From a virus (Duplodnaviria; Caudoviricetes), in the IMG/VR virus record IMGVR_UViG_3300042893_000841, positions 1 to 55,942 of that record: a stretch of DNA of 55,942 bases; one strand, 5' to 3'. A program made the translations under genes and the position numbers. The notes below the pieces were generated by a model. It was not told the DNA's origin and did not search any database. It saw only the letters and a list, made by a program, of their open reading frames with translations. Position 1 is the stretch's first letter. Each line of letters starts with the position of its first letter. Positions 3 through 19,602 of this stretch are shown one piece after another.

Positions 3-1511
3 TATTATAAAGGAAGTCAGGGGGCATCACCATCAATTGGGGTTGCACCAGACCCAAGTGCGGGACAGACAGTTTACGATGAATCACCATTAGTACAATC
101 ACTAACGTCAACTTTAACTTGTGACGGCATGGTTTCACTACAATGTTATCAAGGTACTGGAACAGGAATAACCGTTAATCAAAATTGTGATGTTCCTTCA
201 GACCGGGTTAAACAAGGGTGTTATTGTTTGTTAAATAAAAAATACTTATTGGAGTATGGTGATGATGTTAAATTATTTTTAGAGTGGAAAACAAGATTTA
301 CAATGACATTTGCGGCTTGTAGGGGAGTATTCTCACAAACATTCCAAAACAATTGGATTAATGGGGTTTTATATATGTTTACCTTTAATAAGAGTACAAC
401 ATATAAGTTAAATCAACCTGATGAACCAATATATAATTATTGTAAAGATACGGTAATATTTAATAAATTTAATAATGGATTTTACTATAGAAGTTCTCCT
501 TGGGATGGAACTGATTTTATTGGAGTTAATTCACCACCACCAAGCCCATTTATACCAGTAGAACTTATAACTGAATACCCAGGATTAGGGTATAATAACC
601 AAAGAATCCAGTTCCCAACCACTGTTATGGATTTAGGGCCTAGAGATAGTTTTATTAGTGAAATATGTAATGATGGAAACTTTAATGGATATATTGCCGA
701 CCAAATTAGATCAACATCATATAAAGATAATTCAGACATAATACAAATGGGATTCATATCTAGATTATTAAATCAAAGTGTGATAGACCAAATGTTTCCG
801 GTAGGAAATCCTAATGGTGGAAGTAGTGAAGGTAAAGGAATTATACAATTCTTTAATAGTACTAGAGATGGTGAAAGAATTGATGGTGATATCGCACAAG
901 CGTTATCGATTAATTCTGAGTGGAGAGTTACACCTTATTTGAATGAAAATTATAGAGATTTTGATTTATTCATTGGTGATGATGGGGTTGGAGCTAAACC
1001 AAGACCTGTATTTGGAGTTTTCTTTTCTTCTAGCACTGAAGAATACCAATATAGAAGGAGATTAAGTCCGGGTATTGAAACTTACGCTAGTTCTTGTGGT
1101 AATTTAACATCTTATTATGGTTATCCTAACGACCAAGTTGTCCCACATTATAAATGGAAAATTGCGGGAGCATCAAATAACATTTTTGGTACTGAAAATA
1201 ATAACTGGGTTACAACATCTAATCAGAATGTTTCCGGTTTAGGGTTCTATAGTCAAGAATATCAAAACTTAGATTTTAATAATCCTTTAGAATATTACCA
1301 AGCAGGTACAAATCACGGATTTATAACTAGGTTTAATATTAATGGCAATCCTGTACCATATATTGCAAACCCAAACCCAACAATAACACACGGGACACCA
1401 AATGGAAATCCAATAATAGTCGGAGCACCATTCTTCTTTTACTTTGGGTTAAATAACGGAAACACCGCAATTGATAAATTCATAAAACTTTATGTTGAAA
1501 CTGCAGAATAA
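3..1511 (+). CDS. Virion structural protein (tail/baseplate region), 5'-truncated by window edge
   Basis: Frame is open from position 3 (YYKGSQGASP...) through the listed ATG at 129; Cys/Asn/Gly-rich; stop overlaps the next start (TAATG). Confidence 0.6.
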   Translation, partial: YYKGSQGASPSIGVAPDPSAGQTVYDESPLVQSLTSTLTCDGMVSLQCYQGTGTGITVNQNCDVPSDRVKQGCYCLLNKKYLLEYGDDVKLFLEWKTRFTMTFAACRGVFSQTFQNNWINGVLYMFTFNKSTTYKLNQPDEPIYNYCKDTVIFNKFNNGFYYRSSPWDGTDFIGVNSPPPSPFIPVELITEYPGLGYNNQRIQFPTTVMDLGPRDSFISEICNDGNFNGYIADQIRSTSYKDNSDIIQMGFISRLLNQSVIDQMFPVGNPNGGSSEGKGIIQFFNSTRDGERIDGDIAQALSINSEWRVTPYLNENYRDFDLFIGDDGVGAKPRPVFGVFFSSSTEEYQYRRRLSPGIETYASSCGNLTSYYGYPNDQVVPHYKWKIAGASNNIFGTENNNWVTTSNQNVSGLGFYSQEYQNLDFNNPLEYYQAGTNHGFITRFNINGNPVPYIANPNPTITHGTPNGNPIIVGAPFFFYFGLNNGNTAIDKFIKLYVETAE

Positions 1512-3268: not shown

Positions 3269-4070
3269 ATATAAATTATTGGTTCCAACAACGGATAAAC
3301 AAATAAATATTCCTATTGAAATAAAATGGGATTTTACTGAGCGCGACCAGGCAATTGACGTATATCAAGAACAAATTGTTGGGGATTTAATAGGAGAACC
3401 AACAGATTTTGAATTATCAAGATTTTCACATCAGTCTTATTTACCACTAAATGGTGGAACAAATTTACAAACAAGTGTTAATTATGAATTTAACTTTTTT
3501 GATAGTGGTCAAACAATAAATAACCCAGCGGCTTGGATAAATAGTTATCGATACGAAGGATTTTCTGCGTCGGATATATATTATTACATAAAACCTTTTA
3601 CAAAATCATTCTTTAAGTTGGATTTTTATGATACAAGAATCGACGCATCACAAACAAATTATTTTACAATAATATTACCAGTACAACAAGGTGATTTTGA
3701 AACTGTCACAATATCCCAATCTTTATCTAACATAAAAATTCGTAAACCAAAATTCAAATTAGATTTTGTTGGTGATAAAGAAGGGTTTTTTATTTATTGG
3801 TTAAGGAACAGAGGTTATATTGATATGGACGAATTCTATATGTCAGCTAAATTTTTTGATGCAAGAACTGGTGTGTATGTTAAAATGATGAATAGACCAC
3901 AAGGATCGTTATCAGGAAACTATTATACATTTAATGGGGAAGATTTTTTCTATTACAAAGTTAAATTAGATTATAATACAAAAACATATCAAGTATTTTC
4001 AACTGTAACAGGAAACCAGGTTGGGACCGACATAAACCCAATTTTATGGTATGAATACCTTAACCCTTAA
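3255..4070 (+). CDS. Putative virion structural protein (271 aa)
   Basis: Overlaps upstream gene; operon context. Confidence 0.5.
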   Translation: MSVSKYKLLVPTTDKQINIPIEIKWDFTERDQAIDVYQEQIVGDLIGEPTDFELSRFSHQSYLPLNGGTNLQTSVNYEFNFFDSGQTINNPAAWINSYRYEGFSASDIYYYIKPFTKSFFKLDFYDTRIDASQTNYFTIILPVQQGDFETVTISQSLSNIKIRKPKFKLDFVGDKEGFFIYWLRNRGYIDMDEFYMSAKFFDARTGVYVKMMNRPQGSLSGNYYTFNGEDFFYYKVKLDYNTKTYQVFSTVTGNQVGTDINPILWYEYLNP

Positions 4071-4072
4071 TT

Positions 4073-5245
4073 ATGGAAGAACAAAAATATTATTTTAAAA
4101 TATCTCCGGAAAACATTGAGGCGGATCTTATTATTGTTGATTATACTGCAAGTACCGAAACCAATTATGAAATAGATCCTTGTTGTCCAATAACTGCAAT
4201 AACAACAAATGTTATTACTGGTAGTACTGGGGTTTATACCGGAATGACTTATATTTTGTCAGGAGGAACAAATGGCGAATCTTTATTAACGTGTTTAACA
4301 ATACCATTACTATTTACTGAAACCGCAATTGACTTTGGGTACTATACTCCATTTGATGGGGCGGCAATACAAAAGGATACTATAACTAACTTTTTGTATT
4401 CAGCAACAACCGCCAACCCTTATGATGTATTATTTTTTAACACATCAGATGAAGGGTTAAAGAAATTTTTATCACTATGTACTTTTGTTTTAGATTGGGG
4501 GGACGGTTCACCACTTTTTACATTAACAAATACCACACCTGTTTTACATACTTACCCTGCGGCAACAACACAATATGAAATTATATTAACTTGTTATTCA
4601 CCATGGGGAATATCCACAGTTACAAAACCTGTTAATATACCGTATACTGACGTTATAATACCTAACTCAGGGGGTACCGCATATTTTACTGCCTTTGGTT
4701 GTAATTGGACAGGAACACCAGTTAGTTACGATTATATATTTACTGGGGACTCAAACACATCAATTGATGATTATGATAGTAGTACATTTACTACAGTACC
4801 TTTTTTAATTACAGGGTATACACAAAGTACTTTGAGTGATTTATCACAATACGGACCAAAATACAATTTATTTGGAGGTAAATATAAATTAAATATTCCA
4901 GTAACAGGGACCTCCGCGAGTTACGGAATTGTATATGGACCAGACCCAACCAATACCTATACCGCATATACCGTAAATGATATTTTATATTGGGATATTA
5001 ACGACGGGACTACAATTTATTTTATTTCTTCTTATGGTATAGATAAGGATGAGTATGTTTTGTCAGCATTAACAAAAAATGAAGCATTATTAAATGTAAT
5101 TGATGAACCACAAATACAATCTGAATTATTTATTGAAAGGGGTAAAATTTCTGGGTTAGAGGCGTTACAAAGGTTGGGGGAGGTTGATAATTTAGGTGAT
5201 ATAACAAAATATGGTTATGGATACTTTAATGTCAAAAAATACTGA
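4073..5245 (+). CDS. Putative structural protein with PKD/Ig-like domain
   Basis: DWGDGS...HTY motif typical of PKD domains; Thr-rich. Confidence 0.55.
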   Translation: MEEQKYYFKISPENIEADLIIVDYTASTETNYEIDPCCPITAITTNVITGSTGVYTGMTYILSGGTNGESLLTCLTIPLLFTETAIDFGYYTPFDGAAIQKDTITNFLYSATTANPYDVLFFNTSDEGLKKFLSLCTFVLDWGDGSPLFTLTNTTPVLHTYPAATTQYEIILTCYSPWGISTVTKPVNIPYTDVIIPNSGGTAYFTAFGCNWTGTPVSYDYIFTGDSNTSIDDYDSSTFTTVPFLITGYTQSTLSDLSQYGPKYNLFGGKYKLNIPVTGTSASYGIVYGPDPTNTYTAYTVNDILYWDINDGTTIYFISSYGIDKDEYVLSALTKNEALLNVIDEPQIQSELFIERGKISGLEALQRLGEVDNLGDITKYGYGYFNVKKY

Positions 5246-5289
5246 TTAAAGTATTTATAAAAAGATAAACAAATTTATAACTAAAAAAC

Positions 5290-6198
5290 GTGGCTACAGG
5301 AAATTATGGAACAATAAGACCATCAGATGTAAGTCCTGACGATGTTGAGATAATATTGAATTATACACCGTCTAGAGATAACACTGATAATTTTTTACTA
5401 ACAAAGTTAGACGCTAAAACTATATTGAAGCCGTATTTTCATAATGCAGATACTGGTGGAAACGCAAATGTTGAATTACTTGGTGGTTTATATAATTTAA
5501 AATTACCAGCAGACCAATTTAATAAACTTGGTATTTATACATTATACATAAGACCGGCAGAAATAAGAACTACAATCACTGATTGTGGTGTTTTATCGGC
5601 ATTACCAAATGTTAAAGGAATTGTTATTGATATTAATAATGTTCCGGTTGATTACAGAAATAAATTTATTAATCAAGGATTAATAGGTTTCAGAGTTGAA
5701 TATTTAAATGCGAATGGAACTAAAATACCTAATTTCTTTAGGATTATTACCTCATCATTTTATTGTGAACCTGTTTATCAAAACTTAACAAATACTTCAC
5801 AAAAATCTATTAGATATAGATATGTTGAGAGTAGTACTAATTTATTATTTTGTACTTTATCACCATCAGCATCGCCAACTAACAAACCAAGTGCAACACC
5901 GTACATTGGACAACCAAACCAAAATATAATAATAAGTAATACCTTCTTTAACCCAATCACTACTGAGATAGAGATTGTTGACCAAGACATCTCAACACTT
6001 GCAATTGCTCTTTATGGTAATCAAACTAAATCAATTGATGATGGTATTTACACAATTTACGACAATCAAAATAACATTTATAAACAATACAATCTATACG
6101 AAATTAAGGACCAGTTTAATGAATTATTATATGAGGTTAGACAGGATAGAGGAACTAATATAGATTTTAGTAAAAGTTTTAATAACATAACAGGATAA
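5290..6198 (+). CDS. Putative baseplate/tail structural protein (GTG start)
   Basis: Follows a TATTTAT motif; coupled to the 999-aa baseplate-like gene. Confidence 0.5.
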   Translation: MATGNYGTIRPSDVSPDDVEIILNYTPSRDNTDNFLLTKLDAKTILKPYFHNADTGGNANVELLGGLYNLKLPADQFNKLGIYTLYIRPAEIRTTITDCGVLSALPNVKGIVIDINNVPVDYRNKFINQGLIGFRVEYLNANGTKIPNFFRIITSSFYCEPVYQNLTNTSQKSIRYRYVESSTNLLFCTLSPSASPTNKPSATPYIGQPNQNIIISNTFFNPITTEIEIVDQDISTLAIALYGNQTKSIDDGIYTIYDNQNNIYKQYNLYEIKDQFNELLYEVRQDRGTNIDFSKSFNNITG

Positions 6199-9197
6199 TG
6201 GCAATTAATAAATTTACTTGTCCACCACAGGCCTCAGGCCAAGGATCGTTCTCAGACAACTTAGTTGGATTCCAATTAATTGATGGGGGAGGATTTACGC
6301 AAGGAAATTTTGAATTTACTACTGGTATTTCGGAAAAACAAGATAGAAATTTTGAGATAGGTGTCTTTTCTGACCCTATGAGTTTAACAAGTATGAATAT
6401 TGAGGATGTTGAACAATCAAAAATGTTAATTGCGAATAATTTCCAAGTTTATCCAAATTATGATTTAACCCAAATAACAAATTTTACATTATATGGTTCG
6501 TTAGTACTTAGAGTTTCTTCGTCTATTAGAAAGATTATTAATTTTTTTCCTGCTGGGTTAGAAGTTCTAAATTATAGACCTGATTATACAACTGGATATA
6601 CTGCAGTTAATATTGTTTATGACAGTGTAGAAAATGAAACTTATTTTGATTTAGATATATCCGCAATAAGAAACCCGTTTGGTATTGATTATACAACAAA
6701 TGCGGACAAAAACATTCTTTCATCTGAAATATCAATATCCCAGTTAAGAAATTTAAAACAAAATTTTAACAAATATGGTTTATTTGTGAATGGTGGGGTC
6801 TATTCAATAAATGAGATAGTTCCCACAACCGAAAACGATCAGTATCTAAGAATTTATGTTATTGGAGAACCATTCCCAAATAAATACCAAACTGAAGAAG
6901 ATATAATAATAAGACCTACCGATTTTTATGTTAATAAAGTATTTAATGAAGATTTAGATGCGGTTGAAAACTTCTTACTTAATAGACAGAATTACCCATT
7001 ATATACCGCATACTTTCAAGTACCGGTTGAAAATGAAGATGGGACATATACGTTTAGTTACCAAACATTAAGATTTCCTACCGATGGAAAATGGAATTTG
7101 GACCTTAGAACCAAATCTTTTGAGAATTACTTATCGGAATTAAATAAATTTGCAACAAATTTTGATTCATATAAAACAAATTTAATCTCTAGATTTTTAA
7201 CTACCGCATCCCTAAAAGAATTTGACACAACAGATAAAAAACTTGAAAAAGTTTTACAATTATATGGTAGAAGTTTTGACGAAACTAAAAAATTTATAGA
7301 CGCTCTTGCAAATATGAATTCAGTTAGGTATAATGTTAAAAATGACATACCATCACAATTACTTAGAAATTTAGCACAAACTTTAGGATGGAAAATAAAT
7401 ATGTCCCCTATTAGTGAAACTGAATTATTAGATTCCGTATTTAAGGGGGCTGAAAGTAATTTTAGTGGAGTCCCTATTGGACAAACTCCGGAAGAATTAA
7501 ATTACCAATATTTTAGAAATCTTTTATTAAATTCTGCCTTCTTATTCAAATCAAAAGGAACTAGAAAATCTATTGAAATACTAATGAGATTGATAGGAGC
7601 TCCGGAATTTTTAGTTGAGTTTAATGAACATATATATGTTGCCGACCAAAGGATTAATATTAATGACTTTGAAACAAAATACCTTTCAATATCTGGAGGA
7701 ACCTACGTTCAACAAATACCGGTATTAGATTACACCGATGTGTATTCTATTATGGGAGTACAATATACTGGAGTTACATTATCAAGTATAACTAGGGATG
7801 TTAGTGTTACTCTTTCTGATTACCCCATAGACCAATTTGGTTGCCCCAGCATGCCAGTTGAAAGTGACACATATTACTTCCAAATCGGAGGAGGGTGGTT
7901 TGAATCAACACCACAACATAGAATGCCGGAAAAGATAGATTTGACAACAAGTGTGTTTACCGGAACAAATCCTTCATATCAAACAAAATTATTACCATTT
8001 AATTATGGTGAAGAATATCTACAAAGATACAGACAATTCCCCTATATGGATATGGGATTCAGATTGAGAAAAATTGTGGATAATAAAAAAAGTTGGACAG
8101 ACCACGAAAGTATTTTAAGAAAAAGTTCTGATGGTAATTTTAATGCGTATTATCCAGTTTCGGAAGACTGTTTAGTTCTTAATGTTAAGAATGTTGATAT
8201 CATGTTAAATCCAAGTTTAGGGTTGGTCTATGATGTATGGTCTATGTCTAGATTATATAATTACCCAATACCTAATCAAGGATTAAATTATGTTGAACCA
8301 ACATATTGTAACCCAAACCCAAACACACCATACCCTAAAAGGGGTGGTATTGATTGGACTGAAATTATACCTAAACCAAAAGAAAAAACATTCTTTGAAT
8401 TTGCCCAAACTTTTTGGCATAATACAATTAATGTTAGAAATAGACAATTCATAACTGACGGTAAAACCGGTGGTTATCCTACATTACAATCAATCTATTG
8501 GAAATATTTGGAATCAAAACAAACTGTTAACATCCCAAATGATAATTTCACATATCAAACAATGATTGATTATGTGAATGGTCTTGGAGATTATTGGATT
8601 AGATTGGTAGAACAAATGGTTCCAGCAACAACAATATGGAATACCGGAGTTAGATTTGAGAATTCAATTTTCCATAGACAAAAGTTTGTTTGGAGAAGAC
8701 AATACGGATGTCAAATTGTTCCAATACCTTGTAAACCTTGTCTTTTAACTTCACAATTATTTGCTTTTGATTGTCCCACCCAGTTTATTGAATGTGGGTT
8801 ATATCCTTGGACAAATAATCCAAATATTGTTTCTTTTGGTACTATATTGGCAGAAACTTTAAATAATTATTTATTGGCGAATGGTTTAACTTTAAGTGAT
8901 TGTTTATTAAATACAATTGTTGTTCATTGGTATGTTGATTTAAGATTAAACGGAGTTCCATTAACTATAGACCTATTTACAACAACAAGTGGGTATTCTG
9001 TAATACCAACAAATTCTGAATGGGTGAGCGGATTAACCCAATCTTTAAATAATTTACAAAATGACGGACTAACTTATTCTATTGATGAGGAAAATAATTC
9101 CGTAACTGTTTTTAACATAAATTGTACACCACTTAGCCTTGACGATACGTTTGAGATTAATGTTGGTTTGGACTTTAATATACTGTGTAATCAATAA
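6198..9197 (+). CDS. Baseplate wedge / tail-formation (P2 gpI-like domain) protein
   Basis: LLRNLAQTLGW and LFKSKGTRKSIEILMRLIG resemble the gpI/baseplate wedge signature (L..LA..lG...KGT..si..l). Confidence 0.6.
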   Translation: MAINKFTCPPQASGQGSFSDNLVGFQLIDGGGFTQGNFEFTTGISEKQDRNFEIGVFSDPMSLTSMNIEDVEQSKMLIANNFQVYPNYDLTQITNFTLYGSLVLRVSSSIRKIINFFPAGLEVLNYRPDYTTGYTAVNIVYDSVENETYFDLDISAIRNPFGIDYTTNADKNILSSEISISQLRNLKQNFNKYGLFVNGGVYSINEIVPTTENDQYLRIYVIGEPFPNKYQTEEDIIIRPTDFYVNKVFNEDLDAVENFLLNRQNYPLYTAYFQVPVENEDGTYTFSYQTLRFPTDGKWNLDLRTKSFENYLSELNKFATNFDSYKTNLISRFLTTASLKEFDTTDKKLEKVLQLYGRSFDETKKFIDALANMNSVRYNVKNDIPSQLLRNLAQTLGWKINMSPISETELLDSVFKGAESNFSGVPIGQTPEELNYQYFRNLLLNSAFLFKSKGTRKSIEILMRLIGAPEFLVEFNEHIYVADQRININDFETKYLSISGGTYVQQIPVLDYTDVYSIMGVQYTGVTLSSITRDVSVTLSDYPIDQFGCPSMPVESDTYYFQIGGGWFESTPQHRMPEKIDLTTSVFTGTNPSYQTKLLPFNYGEEYLQRYRQFPYMDMGFRLRKIVDNKKSWTDHESILRKSSDGNFNAYYPVSEDCLVLNVKNVDIMLNPSLGLVYDVWSMSRLYNYPIPNQGLNYVEPTYCNPNPNTPYPKRGGIDWTEIIPKPKEKTFFEFAQTFWHNTINVRNRQFITDGKTGGYPTLQSIYWKYLESKQTVNIPNDNFTYQTMIDYVNGLGDYWIRLVEQMVPATTIWNTGVRFENSIFHRQKFVWRRQYGCQIVPIPCKPCLLTSQLFAFDCPTQFIECGLYPWTNNPNIVSFGTILAETLNNYLLANGLTLSDCLLNTIVVHWYVDLRLNGVPLTIDLFTTTSGYSVIPTNSEWVSGLTQSLNNLQNDGLTYSIDEENNSVTVFNINCTPLSLDDTFEINVGLDFNILCNQ

Positions 9198-11506
9198 TGA
9201 GTTATATTAATTTTATATCGTTTACTGTTACTGGAGATTGTGGTAATCTGAGTGTTGGTGAAATGTCTTTCACTATAACCGGAGACTCACCTACTTGGAT
9301 TGTAACCGAAGGACCACCATATACTGGTTTATTACCTTTGTCTGGTTTAACACCTGGAGATGAAACCTATTATGTTGGTGGATTAAGTGCCGGAACATAC
9401 TCAGTTATCGTACAAGACACCGCACCAACCGGCCCAACACCACCATTTAGTGTAACAACAACATTTAATATTTCTTCAGGTACTACCGTTTATTTGGATG
9501 CGGAAGGAACTACTTGTGGTTTAAATAATGGTTCATTAACTGGTTATACCGGAAATTTTTATGGTAATTCATCATTTTATTTATATACACTTTTAGGTGA
9601 TTATGTAACAAGCGCTCAAACACCTTATAATATTGGATATGTTATTTTTCCTAATTTATCTGCCGACACTTATTATGTTATTGGTGATGATGGTGGTGGT
9701 TGTACTGGGAGAAGTGAATCGGTAATAATTAATGTAAGTAGTTCTTTTGATTATGGTTATTATGCCGTGGACGATGCGAGTTGTATAAACAACCAAGGTA
9801 GTGGTAAAATATACTTAACAGGACTTACAACACCAACAAGTGCCTACACAATTAATTGGATATCAAATGTTAATGGTCAAACAGGAACAACCGTAACCGG
9901 ATTAACACAAGGGTTATATACGGTCGAAGTTACCGACACAATCGGATGTATAGTTCAAAAAAACATTCAAATAGTTAATGTACCTAAAATAGGTATAGGA
10001 GCAACATATATTACATCACCAGGATGTTTCCAAAATAACGGAGAAGTAACGGTTGTTGTTACTGGAGGAACCGCACCATTCTACTACTACGCCTCAAATG
10101 GGGATGACTTTATTGGTTTTGGTACATCACATACATTTACAGGATTAACCAATGGGATATTAACAATAACGGTAACTGACGCTGGTCTATGTAATGACAC
10201 AATACAAGTTAATCTTGTTACACCAAATTCTTTTGGTGTTGTAAATGTCGTTACAACAAATTCAAATTGTAATTCAAATAACGGATCGATATATATAACA
10301 ATTAATAATGGAGTTGGGACTGGTAACTACAATTATACTATTTCTGGGTCTAACGGAACAAATCAAGTAAATGTTGCCGGAGGACTATCACAAACATTTC
10401 AAGTAGGTACTGGGGACTATGTGATTTTAATTGATAATGGGGCGGATTGCCAATATACTGGAACAACAAGTGTTTATAATGTTGATAAATACACAATAAC
10501 GGGTTTAACTCTTAATACGTCTTGTGGTTTAAATAATGGAACCATAAAAACATCGGTATCAACGGGGGCAGTTTATCCTTTGTCATATCAGTTAGTGGGT
10601 CCAATAGGTAATTCAATAACCACAACACAATTAAATGGTAATTTTAGTGGATTACAAGCGGGTACTTATAATTTAACTGTTACAGACGCAACTGGATGTC
10701 AACAAACAATACCAATATACATTGCACCATCAAGCCCTATGTATTTTGATTTTATGACCTTTAATCCGGTGTTTGGTAACGATGGTCAAATAAATGTTTT
10801 AATAACAAGTGGTACACCACCATTCTCATATACTTGGACTGGTAATGTGGGGGTACAAACAGGGATTGTAATTACAGGATTAACATCGGGAGTGTATAGT
10901 TTAACAATAGTTGATGATAATGGTTGTTCATTTACAAGAATTGTGAAATTAAAAGGTACTGAACTTTTTGGAACATACTCAGTGTTCAATATATGTGAAC
11001 AAAATTTTGAAGATTCTAACATTGTAGGTAAAAGAGGTATTTTACAAATGTTTAATGAAGGGTTTTACGATTTAACTTCCGGAGATACAAATTGTATTGT
11101 TAATTCTGCGGAATTTAACTTACAAGTTATTGTTGGTGGTGATGAATTAATTGAAACAATATATTATTCTACAGGACTTGATGATTACCCAAGTGAAGTT
11201 GTGTGGGCTGATTCATTAATAGAAATGTTACAAACATTTGTTGGTATTGGAGATGTAACAATAGATTATGTTAACAACAAAATAACAATAACTAATGATT
11301 GTGAAGAGATTATTAAAAATTGTAGAACAAAAACTTACAATTTATTAAATGATACTAAAATAACGGTTAATTTAATTATCAATTACGATATATCTTGCGT
11401 GGCGTGTGAACCAACACCAACTCCGGACATTCCAATTAATGCAATTATTACTAATAATAATGAATATATGGAAACTGGTGATGATGAATATTTACAATAT
11501 AATTAA
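9197..11506 (+). CDS. SprB-repeat adhesin-like virion/fibre protein
   Basis: Repeated C..NNG.i....GGTAPF/Y...GL..G.Y.vTVTDa.GC units (SprB repeat); C-terminal PTPTP. Confidence 0.75.
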   Translation: MSYINFISFTVTGDCGNLSVGEMSFTITGDSPTWIVTEGPPYTGLLPLSGLTPGDETYYVGGLSAGTYSVIVQDTAPTGPTPPFSVTTTFNISSGTTVYLDAEGTTCGLNNGSLTGYTGNFYGNSSFYLYTLLGDYVTSAQTPYNIGYVIFPNLSADTYYVIGDDGGGCTGRSESVIINVSSSFDYGYYAVDDASCINNQGSGKIYLTGLTTPTSAYTINWISNVNGQTGTTVTGLTQGLYTVEVTDTIGCIVQKNIQIVNVPKIGIGATYITSPGCFQNNGEVTVVVTGGTAPFYYYASNGDDFIGFGTSHTFTGLTNGILTITVTDAGLCNDTIQVNLVTPNSFGVVNVVTTNSNCNSNNGSIYITINNGVGTGNYNYTISGSNGTNQVNVAGGLSQTFQVGTGDYVILIDNGADCQYTGTTSVYNVDKYTITGLTLNTSCGLNNGTIKTSVSTGAVYPLSYQLVGPIGNSITTTQLNGNFSGLQAGTYNLTVTDATGCQQTIPIYIAPSSPMYFDFMTFNPVFGNDGQINVLITSGTPPFSYTWTGNVGVQTGIVITGLTSGVYSLTIVDDNGCSFTRIVKLKGTELFGTYSVFNICEQNFEDSNIVGKRGILQMFNEGFYDLTSGDTNCIVNSAEFNLQVIVGGDELIETIYYSTGLDDYPSEVVWADSLIEMLQTFVGIGDVTIDYVNNKITITNDCEEIIKNCRTKTYNLLNDTKITVNLIINYDISCVACEPTPTPDIPINAIITNNNEYMETGDDEYLQYN

Positions 11507-11508
11507 AT

Positions 11509-11724
11509 ATGCAACAACTAACTTTAAATAGTATCATAGGGTTAGTACCCCCATTTAGTGGATACGCTTGTGACGTTTACGGGAACCAATGTGAATATAT
11601 TGGAACAATAACCTCAACACCAGTAACTATAACATTACCCCCACCTTTTGACATGGCCCCAACAATAGGGTTTAAATTAATTGATTCTACTGGGTGTGAA
11701 AAATTTGAAATCTTAGATTGTTAG
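11509..11724 (+). CDS. Small Cys-containing protein, paralog of 19381..19602
   Basis: PF..Y.CD.....C.Y...I pattern and C-terminal IDSTGC shared with 19381..19602. Confidence 0.6.
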   Translation: MQQLTLNSIIGLVPPFSGYACDVYGNQCEYIGTITSTPVTITLPPPFDMAPTIGFKLIDSTGCEKFEILDC

Positions 11725-11824
11725 TGGTGTAATTAATAGTTACACAACATACATTAACTTAAAAAGTATTCCAGTTAATCCGGAAATAAATTCACTTTAT
11801 TTATTTTAACAATATATTTTAAAT

Positions 11825-12805
11825 ATGAAAGATATTGTATTTGTAACTGCACAACCTGACGTTCCATATTTTCATTGGCAGGTTAAATTATATGTTCATA
11901 ATTTTATTGAGAAGGGAATTGACCCTAAAAAAATTCACGTAATTTTTGCTATGGTTCACGGATCAAAAGAACTAACAGAAGGAGCAAAAAAATTAATGGA
12001 CTATGGTATTAATGTTCATTTTTTTGATGATAATAGAAGTAAAAATTTATATATACCTAGCATAAAACCTTATTTGATATTTAAGTGGTTAGAAAAAAAT
12101 CCTGAATTAGGTAAATGTTTCTTTTTACACGATGCCGATATAATCTTTAATAAATTACCAAACTTTGATAGTTTATTAAGTGATGATATTAATTATTTAT
12201 CAGACACAATAAGTTATATTGGATATGATTACATTATGGATTGTGGTAATAGATATGAAAAACAACATCCTTCATCTGAAAAAGGACAATTAATAAGTGA
12301 AATGGCAAACATAATTGGGATTGATGTTAACACAATAAAAGAAAATCAAGAAAATTCTGGGGGAGGACAATACCTTATAAAAAACACCGATTATAAACTG
12401 TGGGAAAAAATATACATTGATTCAACACCATTATATAATCAAATGTTAAGTTACCAAAAAAGATTCCCAATTAATCCAGGACAAATACAGTTTTGGACTG
12501 CTGAAATGTGGTCCGTTTTATGGAATTTATGGTTACATAATCATAAAACAAAAATAACAAAAGAATTGGATTTTTCCTGGGCGACGGATAATGTTAATAG
12601 GTATAATTCTATGCCAATACTACATATGGCCGGAGTAACAGATGACCTAAAAGGAACTAAATTTTATAAAGGAGAATACATTAATGTCGACCCAATAGAA
12701 AAATTAAGAGAAGATGAGAATTACTTTAATTATGTTGATAAAAATAGCTCAACAATAAAATATATTGAAGTAATGAAATCTTTTATTCAAAAAACTAAAA
12801 TCTGA
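11825..12805 (+). CDS. GT-A glycosyltransferase, SERGT/HPAT (GT96/GT95)-like peptidyl O-glycosyltransferase
   Basis: Ordered motifs YFHWQ, YIPSIKP..WL, HDADII (DxD), GG, WTAEMW, ILH match plant SERGT1-type YFDWQ, YPAINKP..WL, LDADMI, WISEMY, LLH as recalled. Confidence 0.65.
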   Translation: MKDIVFVTAQPDVPYFHWQVKLYVHNFIEKGIDPKKIHVIFAMVHGSKELTEGAKKLMDYGINVHFFDDNRSKNLYIPSIKPYLIFKWLEKNPELGKCFFLHDADIIFNKLPNFDSLLSDDINYLSDTISYIGYDYIMDCGNRYEKQHPSSEKGQLISEMANIIGIDVNTIKENQENSGGGQYLIKNTDYKLWEKIYIDSTPLYNQMLSYQKRFPINPGQIQFWTAEMWSVLWNLWLHNHKTKITKELDFSWATDNVNRYNSMPILHMAGVTDDLKGTKFYKGEYINVDPIEKLREDENYFNYVDKNSSTIKYIEVMKSFIQKTKI

Positions 12806-12818
12806 TTATTTATAATAA

Positions 12819-14597
12819 ATGGAAACTTGTTTTAAATTGCTTTCTTGTGATGGGTCTTATAATCCATTTAACTCTAATAATCCTAATTTATCTGGGTATG
12901 TTGATACATTTATTACCATTGATTTATTAGGTCCTTTAACAGGAACCCCAGAAACCCAATTTTTAGTTAAAAATTTAGGTGAAATTGATTGTGTTACAGG
13001 ACAAACTTTTAATATTATTAGTAGTGCCGAAACTTGTGATTGTCAGTGTTATATTTTTAAAACGCCCGAAGAACCAATATTAACCACATATGTTGATTGT
13101 GACTATAATTTGTTAGAGGTTTATTTACCTACAGGAAAAACAACAAACTTATGTAGTGTCATTAAACCAATTTTTGATATTGGAGATCCTTTACCAATAA
13201 AGTTAGGGGGAATATGTGTTAGTGGGGATTGTCCAAATTACGACATGCCTGTTACTATTGAACCCAGAAATGAATGTGACGTACTTACAATATTTCCTAT
13301 GGGTGTTGATTGTATTATCCAAAATCCAACTAACGATAGAACATTTGACGGAGCGGCAGCATTATCAATTACCGGAGGAACACCACCTTATACGGTAATT
13401 TGGGATAGTGGAGGTATTGCACCAACAATATATAATTTAAATGCTGGTTCATACGGAGCAACCGTAACCGATTTTTATGGTGATTTTATTATTAACACAA
13501 TTTGTGTTTTAACTGCCGAAACAACAACAACCACAACAAGTACAACAATAAAACCACCTATCGAATATAGTGATTTATGTGGAATTGCAACAATTAGAAG
13601 CAAAATAATCGGAGTACCCATTGACTATGTACAAATACAATTAGAACCTAATGGGGCAATTAACGGTAAAGAAAGTTGGATATCCCCAGACACCCAATAT
13701 TTATTATCTTGGATTACCGGAGCAACAAACCAATGGGTTTTAACTGGATATCCATCACCATACATTAATATCGTAAACGCAAATCCGGCAACACCACCAT
13801 TAACTGGATGGCAAGTATTAGGAGGAATAGAAGTTTATAATTTTACACTTATTAGTGGAGACTGTACAAGTGATAGTTTGGTAGGATTTAACTTAACCAA
13901 AAATGACCCTATTTGTGGTAATAGTGGAAGCATCCTTATCCAGGCTTATGGTGGAACTGGAATTTATGAATATTCAATTGATAATGGGATTAATTATACC
14001 TCAAACCCTATGTTCCAGAATTTAGGTTCAGGATCATATGTTGTTTACGTGAAAGATTCTAATGGAGTTACATTTCTTCAAAATGTGTCATTAATACAAC
14101 AACCAACAACAATTTATACAGTTGAATTAAACGTAAATACGGCAACAAATACATTTAGTATTAATTGTCCTTTATTATTACCAGGAGACACATTAACGTT
14201 TAATTTAAATAATAATAGTAATTTACAATATTACCCTAACACTCTTTCACCAGTACCTTTATATAATAATGTTGTTACTATAAATGGTTTTGGGCCAATG
14301 ACTTTAGTAACAACAAACAATTCACAAAATGTTTTAAGTTTACCTTGTTCTATAACACCAATAACTCAATTACAACAAGTAAAAGCATATAGTAATCAAA
14401 TAACATTAAGTTATGGTCAAACAATTACAGGTTCTTTTACCAATAGTTTAGTAAACTACTCACCTTTTGGTTATTGTGTGTTAGCACAAAAAAATTATCA
14501 ATTATTTATGACAAATGCAAAAATTAATAATTGTAAGTGTTGTAGTGTTATTATAAAAAACCCACCGTTATCTACCCCTATAATCGTAAAAAATTAA
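12819..14597 (+). CDS. Cys-rich SprB-repeat virion/fibre protein with poly-Thr linker
   Basis: GGTPPYTVIW, GGTGIYEYSIDNG, YVKDSNG SprB units; ETTTTTTSTT linker. Confidence 0.7.
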   Translation: METCFKLLSCDGSYNPFNSNNPNLSGYVDTFITIDLLGPLTGTPETQFLVKNLGEIDCVTGQTFNIISSAETCDCQCYIFKTPEEPILTTYVDCDYNLLEVYLPTGKTTNLCSVIKPIFDIGDPLPIKLGGICVSGDCPNYDMPVTIEPRNECDVLTIFPMGVDCIIQNPTNDRTFDGAAALSITGGTPPYTVIWDSGGIAPTIYNLNAGSYGATVTDFYGDFIINTICVLTAETTTTTTSTTIKPPIEYSDLCGIATIRSKIIGVPIDYVQIQLEPNGAINGKESWISPDTQYLLSWITGATNQWVLTGYPSPYINIVNANPATPPLTGWQVLGGIEVYNFTLISGDCTSDSLVGFNLTKNDPICGNSGSILIQAYGGTGIYEYSIDNGINYTSNPMFQNLGSGSYVVYVKDSNGVTFLQNVSLIQQPTTIYTVELNVNTATNTFSINCPLLLPGDTLTFNLNNNSNLQYYPNTLSPVPLYNNVVTINGFGPMTLVTTNNSQNVLSLPCSITPITQLQQVKAYSNQITLSYGQTITGSFTNSLVNYSPFGYCVLAQKNYQLFMTNAKINNCKCCSVIIKNPPLSTPIIVKN

Positions 14598-14620
14598 ATA
14601 ATAAAATATTTATCACATAA

Positions 14621-17296
14621 ATGGCATATATAATAAAAAATACATCAGGATTAGTTAACACAAGAGTTACCGACGTTGGTAGACAGAAAATGTCCCAGGG
14701 TAACTTTAATATTTCTTATTTTCAAGTGGGGGATAGTGAGATATCATACGATAAACTACCAGCAACTTATAATCAGGCAAATAGTTTTATTTTAGAACCT
14801 GGGTTTAATAGTCAAAATACTAGCGGAGCTCCCCAATCAAACAAACAATATGTTAAATACCCATATTATGCCGATTCAAACCAAAGAAATACATATGGAA
14901 TACCCTTTATGGACTCAACAATTGATCCGGTATTTAATCGAGCTCCTTTAAGAGGATTTTTTGGGGGAATAACAACCGCAACAACAATAAATTGGGAAGT
15001 TTTAGTTGGGGATAATTATGTCCTTAGTTCTAATTATATGGTGGATATGTCAATGCTTAATGGGTCAAATCAAATTGAGTTAATATATTCTGGTTGTAAT
15101 AGAACAAGTGAGACAACTCCACAAATTGGGGATATTATCACAATTTATTATGATGGGAATGCATTATTAAATTGTGAGTGTATAAACTTACCAACACCAA
15201 CCCCAACACCTTCAGTAAGTGTGTCCCCAACGGTAACTATGACCCCAACACCAACACCTTCACCAACAGATATTTGTGCGTCATCAACACCAACACCAAC
15301 ACCAACAAGAACTCCTTGTTTAACCCCAACACCAAGTCCTGAGTGTCCATTACCACCACCACCGGAGTGTTTTATGGGAATGAATAGTTGTTATACTATT
15401 TTAACATATAGAATTATTGATGTTTGCGGTGATTTAATAACTTTAGATAGACCAACACCAGATTATACAAACTTACTTGTTATGTGTTATTCAAGAGTAT
15501 TAATATACCCTCAAAATATGACACAAATATATGATAGTATAACACCAGGACCACATTGGAGTGAACAAGTTATAAATTTTGAATCTATATGTGATACTGA
15601 CCAGTTTGATGTTAAAGTTTGGAATATGAATATTCCTTGGACAGAAAATCCGGCAGGTTTAATCCCATCATTATTTGAGGACTACACTAAATTTGGTTCT
15701 ATTAATTATATAGGATCAAAAGAATATTTTGGATATAACTCAAGTTCTGGTCAAACAGATACTGATTATGTTTATTATTATAATTCATTTGACGAAATTG
15801 TTCAGGTTAAACCGGAAGAACAAAAGGCAATTGCGATTATACATTATACTAATCAAACAATAGATTTTTTCTATGGTGAGAAATTTGCGTTAGAACCATA
15901 TGATGTGACAAACCCAGAAGACACAACAGGTCAAGCAAGAAACTTTAAATTACATATTCCTTGGTTAATGTGGCATAAAAATCCTGAATGTTGTTTTGGA
16001 CAAACATTTTGGGTAGATCCTCCAGGGTTTGAAGACAAAGAATTATTTACGGTTCATTACCTCAAATCAACTAAGAATGAAGATATGAACCAACCTGGTA
16101 TGAGATATTACCATTTATGGGACACAAACCCTAATTCAGATGGAATCCCAAGTAGAATAGGTAAAGTTTTCCCTGACAGTAAGTTGGTTATTATTGATGA
16201 TGAAGAAATAATTGCCGCAATGTCTTATAAATCAAATAGAAACTGGACGTTACCGGCACCTCAAGTATCATTAATAACACCAAATACTTGTGATACCACA
16301 ACATCGGCAACTGGAATCCTAACAGGAAATTCAGAGACAATGTTTATAACATATAGATTAACTAATGACAATGAATTTACAAATTCATTGCATTGTAATT
16401 ACTATTCAAAAGTTATTGGTAATAATAATGATTGTAATCCGGATACTTCTAAAAATATTGCAATTAGATTTGGTCCTGAGTTTGGATGTTTAGTCCAACC
16501 AGTTCATAATCATATAACAACTACAACCACAACAATACCAGTTTGTCAAAGATATGAAATCATTAATAATGGTGATAAAGGTGTGATCGTAACGTTTACG
16601 CCTTGTTGTGATGAAACAAAAACATCACCACTATCATTACCCGGATCGACAGGAACACAACTTTGCTCAAGCACCGATATTGACCCAATTTCATCCGCGG
16701 TGACAATAACCAATTTAGGTGATTGTCCTTCGTGTATTACAACTACAACAACAACATTTTGTCCTACATGTGAGGTACCTTTAGGTTTTTATGGTAATAG
16801 ATTTGAAATATTAGCACAAAAAGTTGTAACAGGAACTAGACCAGATTCCACAAAATGGAAAGTCATTGATTTTACTCCACTTATTAGCGGAACCTCAATT
16901 AATGGATACTTAACTCAAAATGGTATTACTGGTAGTACTTTTATAATATCAAATGAGAATTATAATGTCGCACCTTACTATAATTTAAATACATTCATCC
17001 CATTAACACCTAACGGTAATGTTGGAGCAAAATTAAACTTTGGTGATGAATATTATTTTTATGGAGCTTTTGAAACAGATATACAGGCAACAATATATGA
17101 AATGAAATATAAAATTAATTTAAGTTCTAGTGAATTCCAGGTATCAACAAACCCATCTTGGACTCAAGGGACTACATCATATGTTACTGAAATTGCGTTA
17201 TTGGATGAAAATAAAGATATATTAGTTATGTCAAAACTACAATCACCAACAATAAGACAAGGTACCCAACAATACGTGATTAAAATAGATTTATAA
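14621..17296 (+). CDS. Tail fibre/collar-type protein with Pro/Thr-rich inserts
   Basis: N-terminal TDVGRQKM..G...ISYFQVGD and C-terminal YVTEIALLDENKDILVMSKL resemble tail-collar fibre (DUF3751-like) termini; PTPTP and TTTTT tracts. Confidence 0.6.
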   Translation: MAYIIKNTSGLVNTRVTDVGRQKMSQGNFNISYFQVGDSEISYDKLPATYNQANSFILEPGFNSQNTSGAPQSNKQYVKYPYYADSNQRNTYGIPFMDSTIDPVFNRAPLRGFFGGITTATTINWEVLVGDNYVLSSNYMVDMSMLNGSNQIELIYSGCNRTSETTPQIGDIITIYYDGNALLNCECINLPTPTPTPSVSVSPTVTMTPTPTPSPTDICASSTPTPTPTRTPCLTPTPSPECPLPPPPECFMGMNSCYTILTYRIIDVCGDLITLDRPTPDYTNLLVMCYSRVLIYPQNMTQIYDSITPGPHWSEQVINFESICDTDQFDVKVWNMNIPWTENPAGLIPSLFEDYTKFGSINYIGSKEYFGYNSSSGQTDTDYVYYYNSFDEIVQVKPEEQKAIAIIHYTNQTIDFFYGEKFALEPYDVTNPEDTTGQARNFKLHIPWLMWHKNPECCFGQTFWVDPPGFEDKELFTVHYLKSTKNEDMNQPGMRYYHLWDTNPNSDGIPSRIGKVFPDSKLVIIDDEEIIAAMSYKSNRNWTLPAPQVSLITPNTCDTTTSATGILTGNSETMFITYRLTNDNEFTNSLHCNYYSKVIGNNNDCNPDTSKNIAIRFGPEFGCLVQPVHNHITTTTTTIPVCQRYEIINNGDKGVIVTFTPCCDETKTSPLSLPGSTGTQLCSSTDIDPISSAVTITNLGDCPSCITTTTTTFCPTCEVPLGFYGNRFEILAQKVVTGTRPDSTKWKVIDFTPLISGTSINGYLTQNGITGSTFIISNENYNVAPYYNLNTFIPLTPNGNVGAKLNFGDEYYFYGAFETDIQATIYEMKYKINLSSSEFQVSTNPSWTQGTTSYVTEIALLDENKDILVMSKLQSPTIRQGTQQYVIKIDL
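15191..15363 (+). repeat. (Pro-Thr)n / Pro-rich low-complexity coding repeat
   Basis: ccaaca-type hexamer repeats encoding PTPTPTPSVSVSPTVTMTPTPTPSPT...PPPP. Confidence 0.9.
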
Positions 17297-17344
17297 AACT
17301 ACAATTTTTTAACATTTCATTTATAGTTAAAATAAAACTATTTT

Positions 17345-17950
17345 ATGGCAAAAACTATGAAAAATTCACCAAAAGTTTTAGGGTTAGATATTTCCACAAA
17401 AACAATTGGATGGGCTTTATTTGATATTAAAACCCAAGAGTTATTAGAATTAACTCACATATCACCAAGACCTAAAATGGGTAATGAAGTAGATAAACTA
17501 AAAGAGTTATTATTAAAATCAGAAATATTTGCCGAAAAAGTTAAACAATATGTTGGTTTAGGTATAGTAAAAGTAATTATTGAAGAACCACTACTTAACT
17601 CAAATAATGTTTATACCATACAAACCCTTTTAAGATTTAATAGTTTTATATTCAAAGAAATATATAATATTTTAGGTATTATTCCTGAATTTGTCTCAAC
17701 ATATAACGCTAGAAAATTTGCTTTCCCAGAATTAGTACAAGAAAATGATAAGAAAAAATTTGTCCTATTTGGGGGATTACCAAAAGACATTGATAAAAAA
17801 ATGATTATTTGGGAAAAGGTTGCAAAAAGAGAACCCCAAATTACGTGGAGTTATACCAGAAATAATACATTAAAAAAGGAAAATTTTGACCAAACAGATG
17901 CTTACGCTTGTGTTTTAGGGTTTATGAGAAATAATAATATATGGGAATAA
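17345..17950 (+). CDS. ruvC: RuvC-like Holliday junction resolvase
   Basis: VLGLDIS..T.GW, IIEEP, DQTDA acidic catalytic motifs of the RNase H-fold RuvC family. Confidence 0.8.
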   Translation: MAKTMKNSPKVLGLDISTKTIGWALFDIKTQELLELTHISPRPKMGNEVDKLKELLLKSEIFAEKVKQYVGLGIVKVIIEEPLLNSNNVYTIQTLLRFNSFIFKEIYNILGIIPEFVSTYNARKFAFPELVQENDKKKFVLFGGLPKDIDKKMIIWEKVAKREPQITWSYTRNNTLKKENFDQTDAYACVLGFMRNNNIWE

Positions 17951-17974
17951 TATTGGTTTAAACATCAATAATTT

Positions 17975-18007
17975 AAAATACCATCTTTTTAGGTGGTATT
18001 TTTTTTT
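17975..18007. terminator. Intrinsic terminator between convergent genes
   Basis: AAAATACCATC-loop-GGTGGTATTTTTTTT hairpin with U-tract. Confidence 0.75.
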
Positions 18008-19379
18008 AACCACAAATATTACCTGTTGGTGTGATTTGTAATGAAGGGTTGTACCCAATAGGGATCGTTGACGAACATATTATTAAACTTTGGTATGATT
18101 GTATCATACCGTCAATTGGTGGTTTATCCCCACAAATTGTATATTGGTATTCCTGTGATGTAGCAGCTTGATTCACCAAAAGATATTCCGTTATAATACA
18201 AGGAGATATGGTTGTTGTTGTTGTGGTTGTTGGTGTTGGAGACGGGCAAGGAACACTTAGTAATGTTGTGTTAAAATTTAAGTCAAAACAATCTACGGAT
18301 GGATTGGTATTTAAAACAATAACCCACTCTAATGTGGTACCTATTGGAAGTACGCTGTCTATTTCTAAATAAGCCCCTAAGATATTTGTTGTAGTTTCAG
18401 TTGCATTCCATCGACCATTGATATTATCCCAATAAATGTTATAAATGTACTGCGGTGAAATAGGGAATGGAAAACTCCATGTGTATGATAATTTTCCATT
18501 TATAAATGTGCCAGGATTAACATTTACAGTTCCACATTCAGAATTCATAATTAAACATTCTAAAATTGGATCGGGAGTTGGAGTAATACAATCTAAACAA
18601 GCTCCTTGATTAAACGGACCAATTAATCCTACAATTTGTATGTTGTCAATACCACTTATATTGTCGACTAAACCCTCAAATGTTGCACAAATACCAATAC
18701 CGTTAATGTATGTACTATACACGTATCCTTCACTAATTGTATTTCCTGATGAATCAAGTAAAATTTGTGTGGTGTAATATTCTAAACCAGTAAAACAATC
18801 AACAAACTTTTTAGTGTTACCACACCTCATATATTCGTCAAAAATATTAAAATTAACTATTCCATTAATATCACAAGGTCTTGTAACTTCAGGTGAAGGA
18901 GTTGGTGTTGGGGTATTTGTTGGAGTAGGAGTTGGGGTGTACCCAGTTATCATAACATCAATAAGAAATCCACCACAAGGATTTGATGTGGTTGGTGTTG
19001 GTGTTGGCGTTGGGGTTGGAGTATTTGTTGGTGTTGGTGTTGGAGTTTGGGAAACTAAACAATTAAAAATTGCGTTAAAATCAAAAGAATCACATGCCGA
19101 TGTTGTTGTTGTGGTTGTTGTCGGACATAACCCACTAAAAAAAAACCCTGAATCTAAGTCAGGAAAAGTGGAACCAACACCAGATGGACCAAATTGGTCA
19201 CAAGTACCCCCCAAACTTAAAGATAAACACCAAGAATCTTCAGTTAATGAATAATATATAAAATATCCATTAGTTAAACCTGTAAAATAATTATATCCAT
19301 TATATGTAAGAGATAAATTATATTCACCATCATAAGATTGACTCGTATTAAAAATACAATAGTTTTCGTCAGTGGCCAT
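18006..19379 (-). CDS. Cys-rich Pro/Thr-repeat virion/fibre-like protein
   Basis: TPTPTPTNTPTPT and TTTTTT tracts separating Cys-rich modules, like the 12819 and 14621 genes. Confidence 0.65.
   Translation of the reverse strand: MATDENYCIFNTSQSYDGEYNLSLTYNGYNYFTGLTNGYFIYYSLTEDSWCLSLSLGGTCDQFGPSGVGSTFPDLDSGFFFSGLCPTTTTTTTSACDSFDFNAIFNCLVSQTPTPTPTNTPTPTPTPTPTTSNPCGGFLIDVMITGYTPTPTPTNTPTPTPSPEVTRPCDINGIVNFNIFDEYMRCGNTKKFVDCFTGLEYYTTQILLDSSGNTISEGYVYSTYINGIGICATFEGLVDNISGIDNIQIVGLIGPFNQGACLDCITPTPDPILECLIMNSECGTVNVNPGTFINGKLSYTWSFPFPISPQYIYNIYWDNINGRWNATETTTNILGAYLEIDSVLPIGTTLEWVIVLNTNPSVDCFDLNFNTTLLSVPCPSPTPTTTTTTTISPCIITEYLLVNQAATSQEYQYTICGDKPPIDGMIQSYQSLIICSSTIPIGYNPSLQITPTGNICG
18895..19122 (-). 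repeat. (Thr-Pro)n and poly-Thr coding repeats
   Basis: ggtgtt/ggagtt hexamer repeats on + strand. Confidence 0.9.
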
Positions 19380-19380
19380 A

Positions 19381-19602
19381 TTATATTGTTAAAATCTCAT
19401 TTATTTGACATTCATTATTATCAATAACCCTCAAATTAAATTCTGTTGAGTTTGCATAAATAATTGGAACCTCAAACGTGTAAGGTAAATCTCCGGAATT
19501 TATTGTTGACACATAAACACAAGATGTCATACCTGTATCACACACGTAAACATCAAATGGTGTTGAACCTGAAATATCGTTTATTGTTATATCTATTGGC
19601 AT
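19381..19602 (-). CDS. Small Cys-containing protein, paralog of 11509..11724
   Basis: GSTPFDVYVCDTGMTSCVYV...VIDNNEC; preceded by TATTTAT. Confidence 0.6.
   Translation of the reverse strand: MPIDITINDISGSTPFDVYVCDTGMTSCVYVSTINSGDLPYTFEVPIIYANSTEFNLRVIDNNECQINEILTI

Follow-up and report, generated by a model that had tools for sequence, protein, structure and literature searches.

The stretch of DNA analysed here (the window; 55,942 nt) is IMG/VR record IMGVR_UViG_3300042893_000841, a tailed-phage sequence (Duplodnaviria; Caudoviricetes) with ~30% G+C and a CheckV completeness of 19%. It carries a gene for a putative glycosyltransferase beside genes whose products contain threonine/proline-rich tracts, and this report concerns the likely O-glycosylation of such tracts on virion proteins by this enzyme and its relatives. 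Since complete relatives of the phage measure 290,887 bp (genome G001) and 318,164 bp, the window is a piece of a jumbo phage. In G001, the tail sheath, tube and hub genes lie at 31-37 kb and gp25-like and gp6-like baseplate wedge genes at 59.3-61.6 kb; the open reading frames (ORFs) of the window from base 3 to 17296 are colinear, on the same strand, with G001 61.6-87.2 kb, right after the wedge genes. This colinearity therefore places the enzyme gene in the baseplate/fibre block of a myovirus, and by synteny its neighbours are presumably particle genes. The features of the region are as follows.

11825..12805, plus strand: glycosyltransferase ORF, 326 aa; predicted soluble GT-A enzyme of the phrog_4417 family, with a DxD motif (D103-A-D105) and a conserved histidine (H267)
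12819..14597, plus strand: 592-aa fibre-like protein with SprB repeat; internal TTTTTTSTT (nt 13521-13547); candidate acceptor
14621..17296, plus strand: 891-aa protein; (PT)n-rich linker (nt 15191-15340), PPPP, and T6 at 16517-16534 and 16739-16756; candidate acceptor
18006..19379, minus strand: 457-aa protein; T7 (19098-19124), five (TP)n stretches (18891-19046) and PSPTPTTTTTTT (18210-18245); candidate acceptor
9197..11506, plus strand: 769-aa SprB-repeat protein upstream of the enzyme gene; PTPTP (11411-11425) and TTPTS only; weak or non-acceptor here
11509..11724, plus strand: 71-aa protein just 5' of the enzyme gene; paralog of the 73-aa ORF
19381..19602, minus strand: 73-aa protein at the far end of the cluster; paralog of the 71-aa ORF
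6198..9197, plus strand: 999-aa protein of the same-strand block, without a tract; colinear with the block downstream of the G001 baseplate genes; context only

All six-frame window ORFs of at least 60 aa were scanned for runs of T, P or S of at least 6 residues that include at least 3 Thr. Such tracts were found in three ORFs only (12819-14597, 14621-17296 and 18006-19379), each no further than 6.6 kb downstream of the enzyme gene, and none in the other ~49 kb of the window. This clustering of Thr/Pro tracts by the enzyme gene is more than chance. The 891-aa protein contains four (PT)n/(TP)n stretches at residues 191-240, PPPP within CPLPPPPEC, and two T6 runs that flank a Cys-containing module of ~70 aa. 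The Thr runs are not pure DNA microsatellites, because their codons are a mixture of ACA, ACC, ACT and ACG. The first-pass annotation, made from the letters of the window, had assigned Pro/Thr linkers to four virion genes; three of them indeed carry strong tracts, whereas the ORF at 9197-11506 has PTPTP at residues 739-743, TTPTS and nothing longer, and the word virion stands on synteny. No library named the neighbours of the enzyme gene, except for SprB repeats in the 769-aa and 592-aa proteins and a weak PHROG match of the former (Pfam SprB, 2.7e-8; phrog_26672, 'virion structural protein', 1.1e-5). A tblastn search with the 891-aa and 999-aa neighbours against isolated phages gave no match.

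The 326-aa translation contains YFHWQ (residue 15), YIPSIKP (76), WL (88), HDAD (102), WTAEMW (224) and ILH (265), that is, every motif that the first-pass annotation had reported, in the order it gave. The enzyme family corresponds to phrog_4417, annotated as 'unknown function' (E 1.8e-70), and comprises 838 representatives at 50% clustering and at least 595 IMG/VR loci. In an alignment of 56 family members, D105, H267 and G270 are among the invariant positions, and D103 is at least 90% conserved. The AlphaFold model built from this alignment (mean predicted local distance difference test score 96.8, predicted template modelling score 0.93) shows the features of GT-A enzymes: a single Rossmann-like alpha/beta/alpha domain with the DxD motif (H102-D103-A104-D105) after strand 98-101. 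The model was compared with ~48,000 representative solved chains in a search independent of Foldseek, in which rows within one Z unit are ties. The matches include glycogenin (Z 14.8 and 14.7), Skp1 alpha-galactosyltransferase (6mw8; 14.4), the lipopolysaccharide (LPS) enzyme WbbM (13.8), the catalytic domain of UGGT (13.8), the LPS enzyme LgtC (13.7), GlyE, which acts on a pneumococcal serine-rich-repeat protein (13.5), and the PBCV-1 capsid glycosyltransferase (A64R, 2p6w; 11.1); Foldseek agreed with this result. The structural comparison that the first-pass annotation had called for thus led to glycogenin, Skp1 galactosyltransferase and UGGT and not to DNA-modifying enzymes, with LPS enzymes within ~1 Z unit. 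By its predicted structure, the enzyme is of GT-A fold and nearest to the retaining GT8/GT24 group, and it probably uses a retaining mechanism. As the scores of WbbM and LgtC come to within ~1 Z unit of the best, the fold does not tell a protein acceptor from a lipopolysaccharide acceptor. Neither a DNA glycosyltransferase nor a solved structure of the plant enzymes discussed below occurs among the 50 structural matches listed.

At the level of sequence, Pfam Glyco_transf_8 matched neither the window protein (E <=0.01) nor any of the 56 aligned members (E <=1), and Pfam and NCBIfam searches with the window protein gave no match. Searches of the PDB with the protein and with the family profile yielded no real match: AAR2 and TAL-effector repeats were returned through composition, and GNPTAB, which bears on a possible likeness to Stealth/N-acetylglucosamine(GlcNAc)-1-phosphotransferases, came up at E 0.18. 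The maximum 19-residue Kyte-Doolittle mean of the enzyme is 0.55, and hence it has no membrane or hydrophobic segment. A second known glycosyltransferase domain is present in 13 of the 30 longer relatives scanned (GlcNAc-type in three, GT7C in four, GT6 in two, GT2 in two, GT25 in one, weakly, and GlcNAc-type plus O-FucT in one), and other longer relatives carry methyltransferase, radical-SAM or F5/8-type-C domains. These fusions fit an initiating enzyme whose product would be extended in some phages. In one relative (P0124, 269 aa), a piece of GDP-mannose 4,6-dehydratase is fused to the C-terminal portion of the enzyme, with 72% identity over residues 95-282; the fusion may be an artefact of gene calling or assembly, and it hints that a GDP-sugar pathway gene adjoins the enzyme gene there. 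The earlier assignment of 11825..12805 as a glycosyltransferase is borne out by the fold, by the conservation of the DxD motif and of the His residue, and by the glycosyltransferase fusion partners, and the enzyme represents a new, unnamed GT8-like phage family.

The first-pass annotation had further likened the enzyme to plant peptidyl-serine galactosyltransferase (SERGT, GT96) and hydroxyproline arabinosyltransferase (HPAT, GT95). The HPAT part of this claim is a lead. The window protein has no match to the HPAT profile PF23452; one of 70 relatives (P0264) matches it at E 1.3e-4, with 21.9 bits against a curated cut-off of 23.9, and the alignment is domain-wide (residues 9-242 against profile positions 9-230 of 307). 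Matches to PF23452 at E <=1 were obtained for two of the 56 aligned members, and HPAT is the label of 20 of the 30 named clusters among the language-model neighbours. Of 85 homologs retrieved with P0264 as the query, not one is annotated as HPAT or bears the name of a plant, and SERGT1 did not come up in any search. A PF23452 search of the window's own record gave no match and is uninformative because control genomes were silent too. Likeness to HPAT can therefore be regarded as a real but distant lead, not as membership. HPAT enzymes have a Golgi type II membrane anchor and transfer arabinofuranose to hydroxyproline, and SERGT1 acts on serine, whereas the phage enzyme lacks an anchor and its proposed acceptor is Thr. 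HPAT and SERGT1 modify hydroxyl side chains in Pro-rich repeats, and such side chains as a target would be common to the plant enzymes and the proposed phage system.

A tblastn search detected the family in 77 isolated phage records, all at <60% identity, and the hosts of these phages include Lactobacillus, Enterococcus, Staphylococcus, Lactococcus, Clostridium and Chryseobacterium. Seven isolated phages were picked for diversity and not for Thr content, and in all seven Thr runs occur on proteins beside the enzyme gene. In phiFL1A, the capsid-position protein gp45 and the major tail protein gp50 end in poly-Thr and the enzyme, gp51, follows right after gp50; all 11 genome-wide matches to five consecutive ACN codons (ACN-x5) lie at the C-termini of gp45 and gp50 (the tail tube). 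VPE25 has Thr at the C-terminus of the tail tube (T10) and on a 393-aa protein, and PLE3 has it on the capsid, the tail tube and a 129-aa poly-Thr ORF just 5' of the enzyme gene. Staphylococcus phage SA2 carries Thr on the tail tube and an overlapping ORF, phiCTP1 in three proteins, the myovirus Iacchus in two small ORFs, and Chryseobacterium phage MA9V-3 in two ORFs with tracts of 20-40 residues. In phiFL1A, the enzyme gene is flanked by the gene for the major tail protein on one side and the tail chaperone/tape-measure genes on the other; in VPE25 and PLE3, its neighbours are the capsid gene and the head-tail connectors. Moreover, in a sample of a distant subfamily (24 loci; enzymes 30-71% identical to P0264), 20 loci have a Thr tract in the ORF directly adjoining the enzyme gene, and two of the remaining four are cut at an edge.

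The gain and loss of the enzyme were then compared with those of the Thr tails in IMG/VR loci fetched with tail-tube cores from which the tails had been removed, so that sampling was blind to the enzyme. Among the 27 loci of the phiFL1A type, all 12 enzyme-positive ones show poly-Thr in the tail tube as well as in the capsid-position ORF, with the enzyme gene directly after the tail-tube gene, and none of the 15 enzyme-negative ones has a T5 run. On the tree of the cores the enzyme state changes four times, giving four independent pairs (two on well-supported branches), and the Thr state is identical to it in every row. Across a distance of 2 kb and several untagged genes, the capsid-position tail also follows the state of the enzyme in 27/27 loci. 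For the PLE3 type, 80 loci were retrieved, 10 were dropped since the enzyme position was uncovered, and 70 were assessed: a T5 run is present in 35/35 enzyme-positive loci (on the tail tube in 33) and absent from 30 of the 35 enzyme-negative ones, the other five keeping a T7 tail. Here, about three of four independent pairs are concordant, one shows no difference and none is opposite. In addition, a relative of SA2 (L197) whose tail tube is 87% identical has neither enzyme nor tail; four close relatives of VPE25 have both and three distant ones neither; no enzyme-negative relative was found among the phiCTP1-type tail-tube loci, hence no contrast. A hand count over all lineages gives ~9 concordant contrasts, 0 opposite and ~1 tie (two-sided sign test ~0.004; ~0.016 with well-supported branches only).

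Within the lineage of the window, 80 relatives with enzymes 59-76% identical to that of the window keep the gene order. Tracts are present in 58 of 60 orthologs of the 891-aa protein (variable in length and make-up), in 59 of 59 of the 457-aa protein, in 37 of 54 of the 592-aa protein, in 36 of 73 of the 769-aa protein (longer than in the window) and in 2 of 62 of the 999-aa protein. Such persistence with varying length and make-up resembles selection that acts on composition and not on sequence. G001 has a single enzyme gene and, by a protein-level scan, tracts in 16 of 908 ORFs, five of which lie in the 12.5 kb surrounding the enzyme gene (binomial 4e-4). The protein-level scan replaced a genome-wide scan for the ACN-x5 DNA pattern, which was rejected for two jumbo relatives because the reversed-pattern control matched as often or more often (22 against 10 and 25 against 43). 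Elsewhere in G001, a 167-aa ORF with (TP)7 has right after it the gene for a further glycosyltransferase, unrelated to the first (phrog_24687, E 1.4e-164; L220 15397-17193), the contig start is crossed by an ORF of >3,100 aa for a collagen-like fibre (L220 1-9369), with tract ORFs adjoining both the fibre and the second glycosyltransferase, and the 1107-aa tail sheath (L203 1451-4774) contains PPTTTSTTT and PTTTTTTT.

In two types of phage, Thr-rich tracts may be reached by way of another frame. The capsid-like coding sequence (CDS) 5' of the VPE25 enzyme gene (L002 5700-5870) ends with VVATAK and a stop, and a -1 ORF without a start codon continues with SKVTPQPTTTTTTTVKPTTTTT; the T-rich -1-frame ORF is kept in all five VPE25-like genomes (L002, L206-L209) despite differing junction sequences. 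This suggests that a programmed frameshift adds a poly-Thr tail to a fraction of the capsid-like subunits. In SA2 (L114 7560-7930), the tail tube ends with STTTTTTTTP and a stop, after which the +1 frame encodes ~90 Thr/Ser-rich residues, annotated as a separate overlapping CDS; this ORF may lengthen the tail tube by way of a frameshift.

Taken together, we consider it likely that the enzyme O-glycosylates Thr-rich tracts on virion proteins, a mechanism that is well supported by comparative evidence and biochemically unproven. A soluble, cytoplasmic, metal-dependent GT8-like enzyme would act during late gene expression and transfer a sugar from a nucleotide sugar to the hydroxyls of Thr (and Ser) in Thr-rich and (PT)n tracts. 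The acceptors would be interdomain linkers of the three fibre-like proteins encoded beside the enzyme in the window, and C-terminal poly-Thr tails of capsid and tail-tube proteins in small siphoviruses. We infer both the acceptor and the sugar from these comparisons, and likewise the effects on the particle, which may include hydration, stiffness, shielding from proteases and antibodies, and adhesion. A broader reading is quite possible, and we offer it tentatively: one soluble GT8-like enzyme plus a simple poly-Thr/(PT)n tag would form a portable two-part module, the tag being one that can be appended wherever a particle protein is exposed, be it the capsid, the tail tube, a sheath insertion or a fibre linker. 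Such a module would have spread among tailed phages that infect Bacillota and Bacteroidota and range from temperate siphoviruses of 38 kb to jumbo myoviruses of 300 kb; some lineages would reach the tag only via programmed ribosomal frameshifting at the end of the capsid or tail-tube gene, placing a glycan brush on a fraction of the subunits.

Several observations weigh against O-glycosylation of the tracts. The case is built from genes and sequences, the glycan itself being a prediction, and the tracts of the window are internal linkers that could simply be flexible spacers. The enzyme occurs without a tract in two distant-subfamily loci (L369, with 5 kb on each side, and L370, with 1.8 kb upstream) and without a tail-tube tail in two PLE3-type loci (L188 and L194). 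Conversely, the tail tubes of five PLE3-type proviruses (L119, L120, L121, L126 and L127) end in TTTTTTTSK where no gene of the enzyme family is present. No other Thr run occurs anywhere in these five records, three of which are 96-100% complete; as the capsid tail and the poly-Thr ORF have also been lost, they are probably recombinants of the head/tail module, and a Thr tail can thus persist without the enzyme. In 80 IMG/VR loci sampled solely by a Thr7-coding pattern, with counts that have no random-contig base rate for the enzyme, 65 have an in-frame run of at least 6 Thr, and the enzyme lies within 2 kb in only four (three contigs). Of 31 such contigs of at least 30 kb, 27 were searched whole; three of the 27 have the enzyme elsewhere, and it is present in one of the seven that are at least 90% complete. 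Therefore, the enzyme is nearly always accompanied by Thr tracts, but Thr tracts often occur without it; other enzyme families, host enzymes or unglycosylated linkers must account for the rest. Finally, a single recombination can move linked enzyme and tagged genes together without any functional tie. Some of the co-transfer can be put down to linkage, which leaves unexplained that the cargo is a poly-Thr tag every time. With respect to the first-pass annotation, the expected co-occurrence was obtained in one direction, from enzyme to Thr tracts in unrelated phages; its proposal that the phage glycosylates its own fibres gains from the family travelling with Thr tracts on capsid, tail-tube and fibre-like proteins, while the acceptor remains a prediction.

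Alternatively, the enzyme might target a host envelope polymer or precursor (teichoic acid, LPS or capsule), and the tracts would then be flexible linkers in the same mobile structural module. The closeness of WbbM and LgtC to the top structural matches, the many poly-Thr phages without the enzyme, the orphan Thr tails, and the fact that physical linkage alone could give co-transfer all speak for this explanation. We nevertheless regard it as unlikely: the enzyme is soluble and lacks a membrane segment, its gene lies inside late structural operons and not at lysogeny/moron positions even in the temperate phiFL1A, the phiFL1A-type capsid-position tail co-varies with it from 2 kb away in every locus, and linkers leave pure poly-Thr at the extreme C-termini of capsid and tail-tube proteins unexplained. 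It is rather improbable that virion proteins are glycosylated outside the Thr tracts, with the tracts serving as spacers or enzyme docking elements. The modification site proposed here is a prediction, and in mycobacteriophage Che8, discussed below, the capsid and tail-tube C-termini are not poly-Thr; against this, the Thr tail is the only feature that tracks the enzyme in near-identical tail tubes (L103 and L110; core branches 0 and 0.01).

Glycosylation of phage DNA (hydroxymethylated bases) as an anti-restriction measure appears very improbable. DNA-hypermodifying phage GT-A enzymes are known, and phage DNA glycosyltransferases adjoin genes for a C5-methyltransferase plus 5mYOX or for thymidylate synthase, as described in bioRxiv 10.1101/2023.12.21.572611; the window itself encodes several DNA methyltransferases. 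The present family sits in structural modules, unlike those DNA glycosyltransferases, the 38.8-kb temperate phiFL1A has no annotated hydroxymethylase or dioxygenase, none of the 50 listed structural matches is a DNA glycosyltransferase, and this reading offers no account of why Thr tails co-vary with the enzyme. The RB69-type DNA arabinosyltransferase was also considered as a relative and ruled out, since it is described as GT-B in PMC6024577.

The closest known system to O-glycosylation of virion tracts is that of the mycobacteriophages Che8, Corndog and Myrna, for which virion glycosylation has been described (Freeman et al. 2023, as related in PMC12363180 and PMC12619734). According to these sources, phage-encoded cytoplasmic glycosyltransferases modify the C-termini of the phages' own capsid and tail-tube proteins, as is proposed for the present family. 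The first-pass annotation had called such an arrangement mainly known from eukaryotes; this is overstated, given the mycobacteriophage work just cited and, among the structural matches, GlyE, a GT8 enzyme that glycosylates a bacterial serine-rich adhesin. By Pfam, Che8 gp108 contains GT2 and methyltransferase domains, gp109 GT2 and gp110 GT25, and the GT2, GT25 and Methyltransf_24 domains fused to relatives of our enzyme are of the same kinds. The enzyme itself belongs to another family: hhalign of its family against gp108-110 as single-sequence templates gave probabilities of 0.06-0.23%, that is, no profile similarity. The two systems also differ in their targets, the Che8 capsid and tail-tube C-termini not being poly-Thr, unlike phiFL1A/PLE3-type tails; in gene position, the Che8 genes lying at the far right genome end and the present family inside the structural operon; and in hosts, which for the present family are Bacillota and probably Bacteroidota. 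GT8/GT24 enzymes (glycogenin, 6mw8, GlyE, LgtC and UGGT) share 6-12% sequence identity with the window protein. We know of no poly-Thr acceptor for glycogenin, the Skp1 enzyme, GlyE, LgtC or UGGT. A64R (2p6w) of chlorovirus PBCV-1 comes from a eukaryotic virus and is a much weaker structural match, and to our knowledge no poly-Thr acceptor has been reported for PBCV-1 capsid glycosylation. No paper was found on the enzyme family or on poly-Thr tags of phage particles in a literature search that left most subscription journals outside, so that absence is not proven. What is new is the enzyme family; phage virion glycosylation is a kind already known.

Some further features of the window were also noted. 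The 71-aa and 73-aa ORFs at the ends of the cluster are 33% identical over 69 aa (BLASTP, E 5e-10) and have Cys positions in common. A 146-aa ORF with GVGVGV repeats (18814-19254, plus strand) reads the (TP)n tracts of the 457-aa gene in antisense and can almost certainly be dismissed as a gene. At 40023-40955 the window encodes a full DnaJ, with J, zinc-finger and C-terminal domains; together with the likely Bacteroidota host, this DnaJ is reminiscent of the 'moraphages' described in PMC12619734. The protein at 52888-53715 combines Methyltransf_24 and DUF3310; Methyltransf_24 is also fused to GT2 in Che8 gp108 and, in P0169, to a relative of the enzyme. Other parts of the window encode SbcCD, a sigma factor, three DNA methyltransferases, thioredoxin and NUDIX.

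Phage particles are usually treated as bare protein. If O-glycosylation of Thr-rich tracts is true, glycosylated virions would be common well beyond mycobacteriophages, including phages of Enterococcus, Staphylococcus, Lactobacillus, Lactococcus and Clostridium that matter for therapy and dairy fermentation, as well as abundant aquatic jumbo phages. The claim is directly testable in the cultured phages phiFL1A, VPE25, PLE3 and SA2. It would bear on antibody recognition, stability, adhesion to mucus and host surfaces, and the reading of cryo-electron microscopy maps and virion mass spectra. Moreover, the enzyme and its tag could be used as a genetically encoded handle for cytoplasmic O-glycosylation of chosen proteins.

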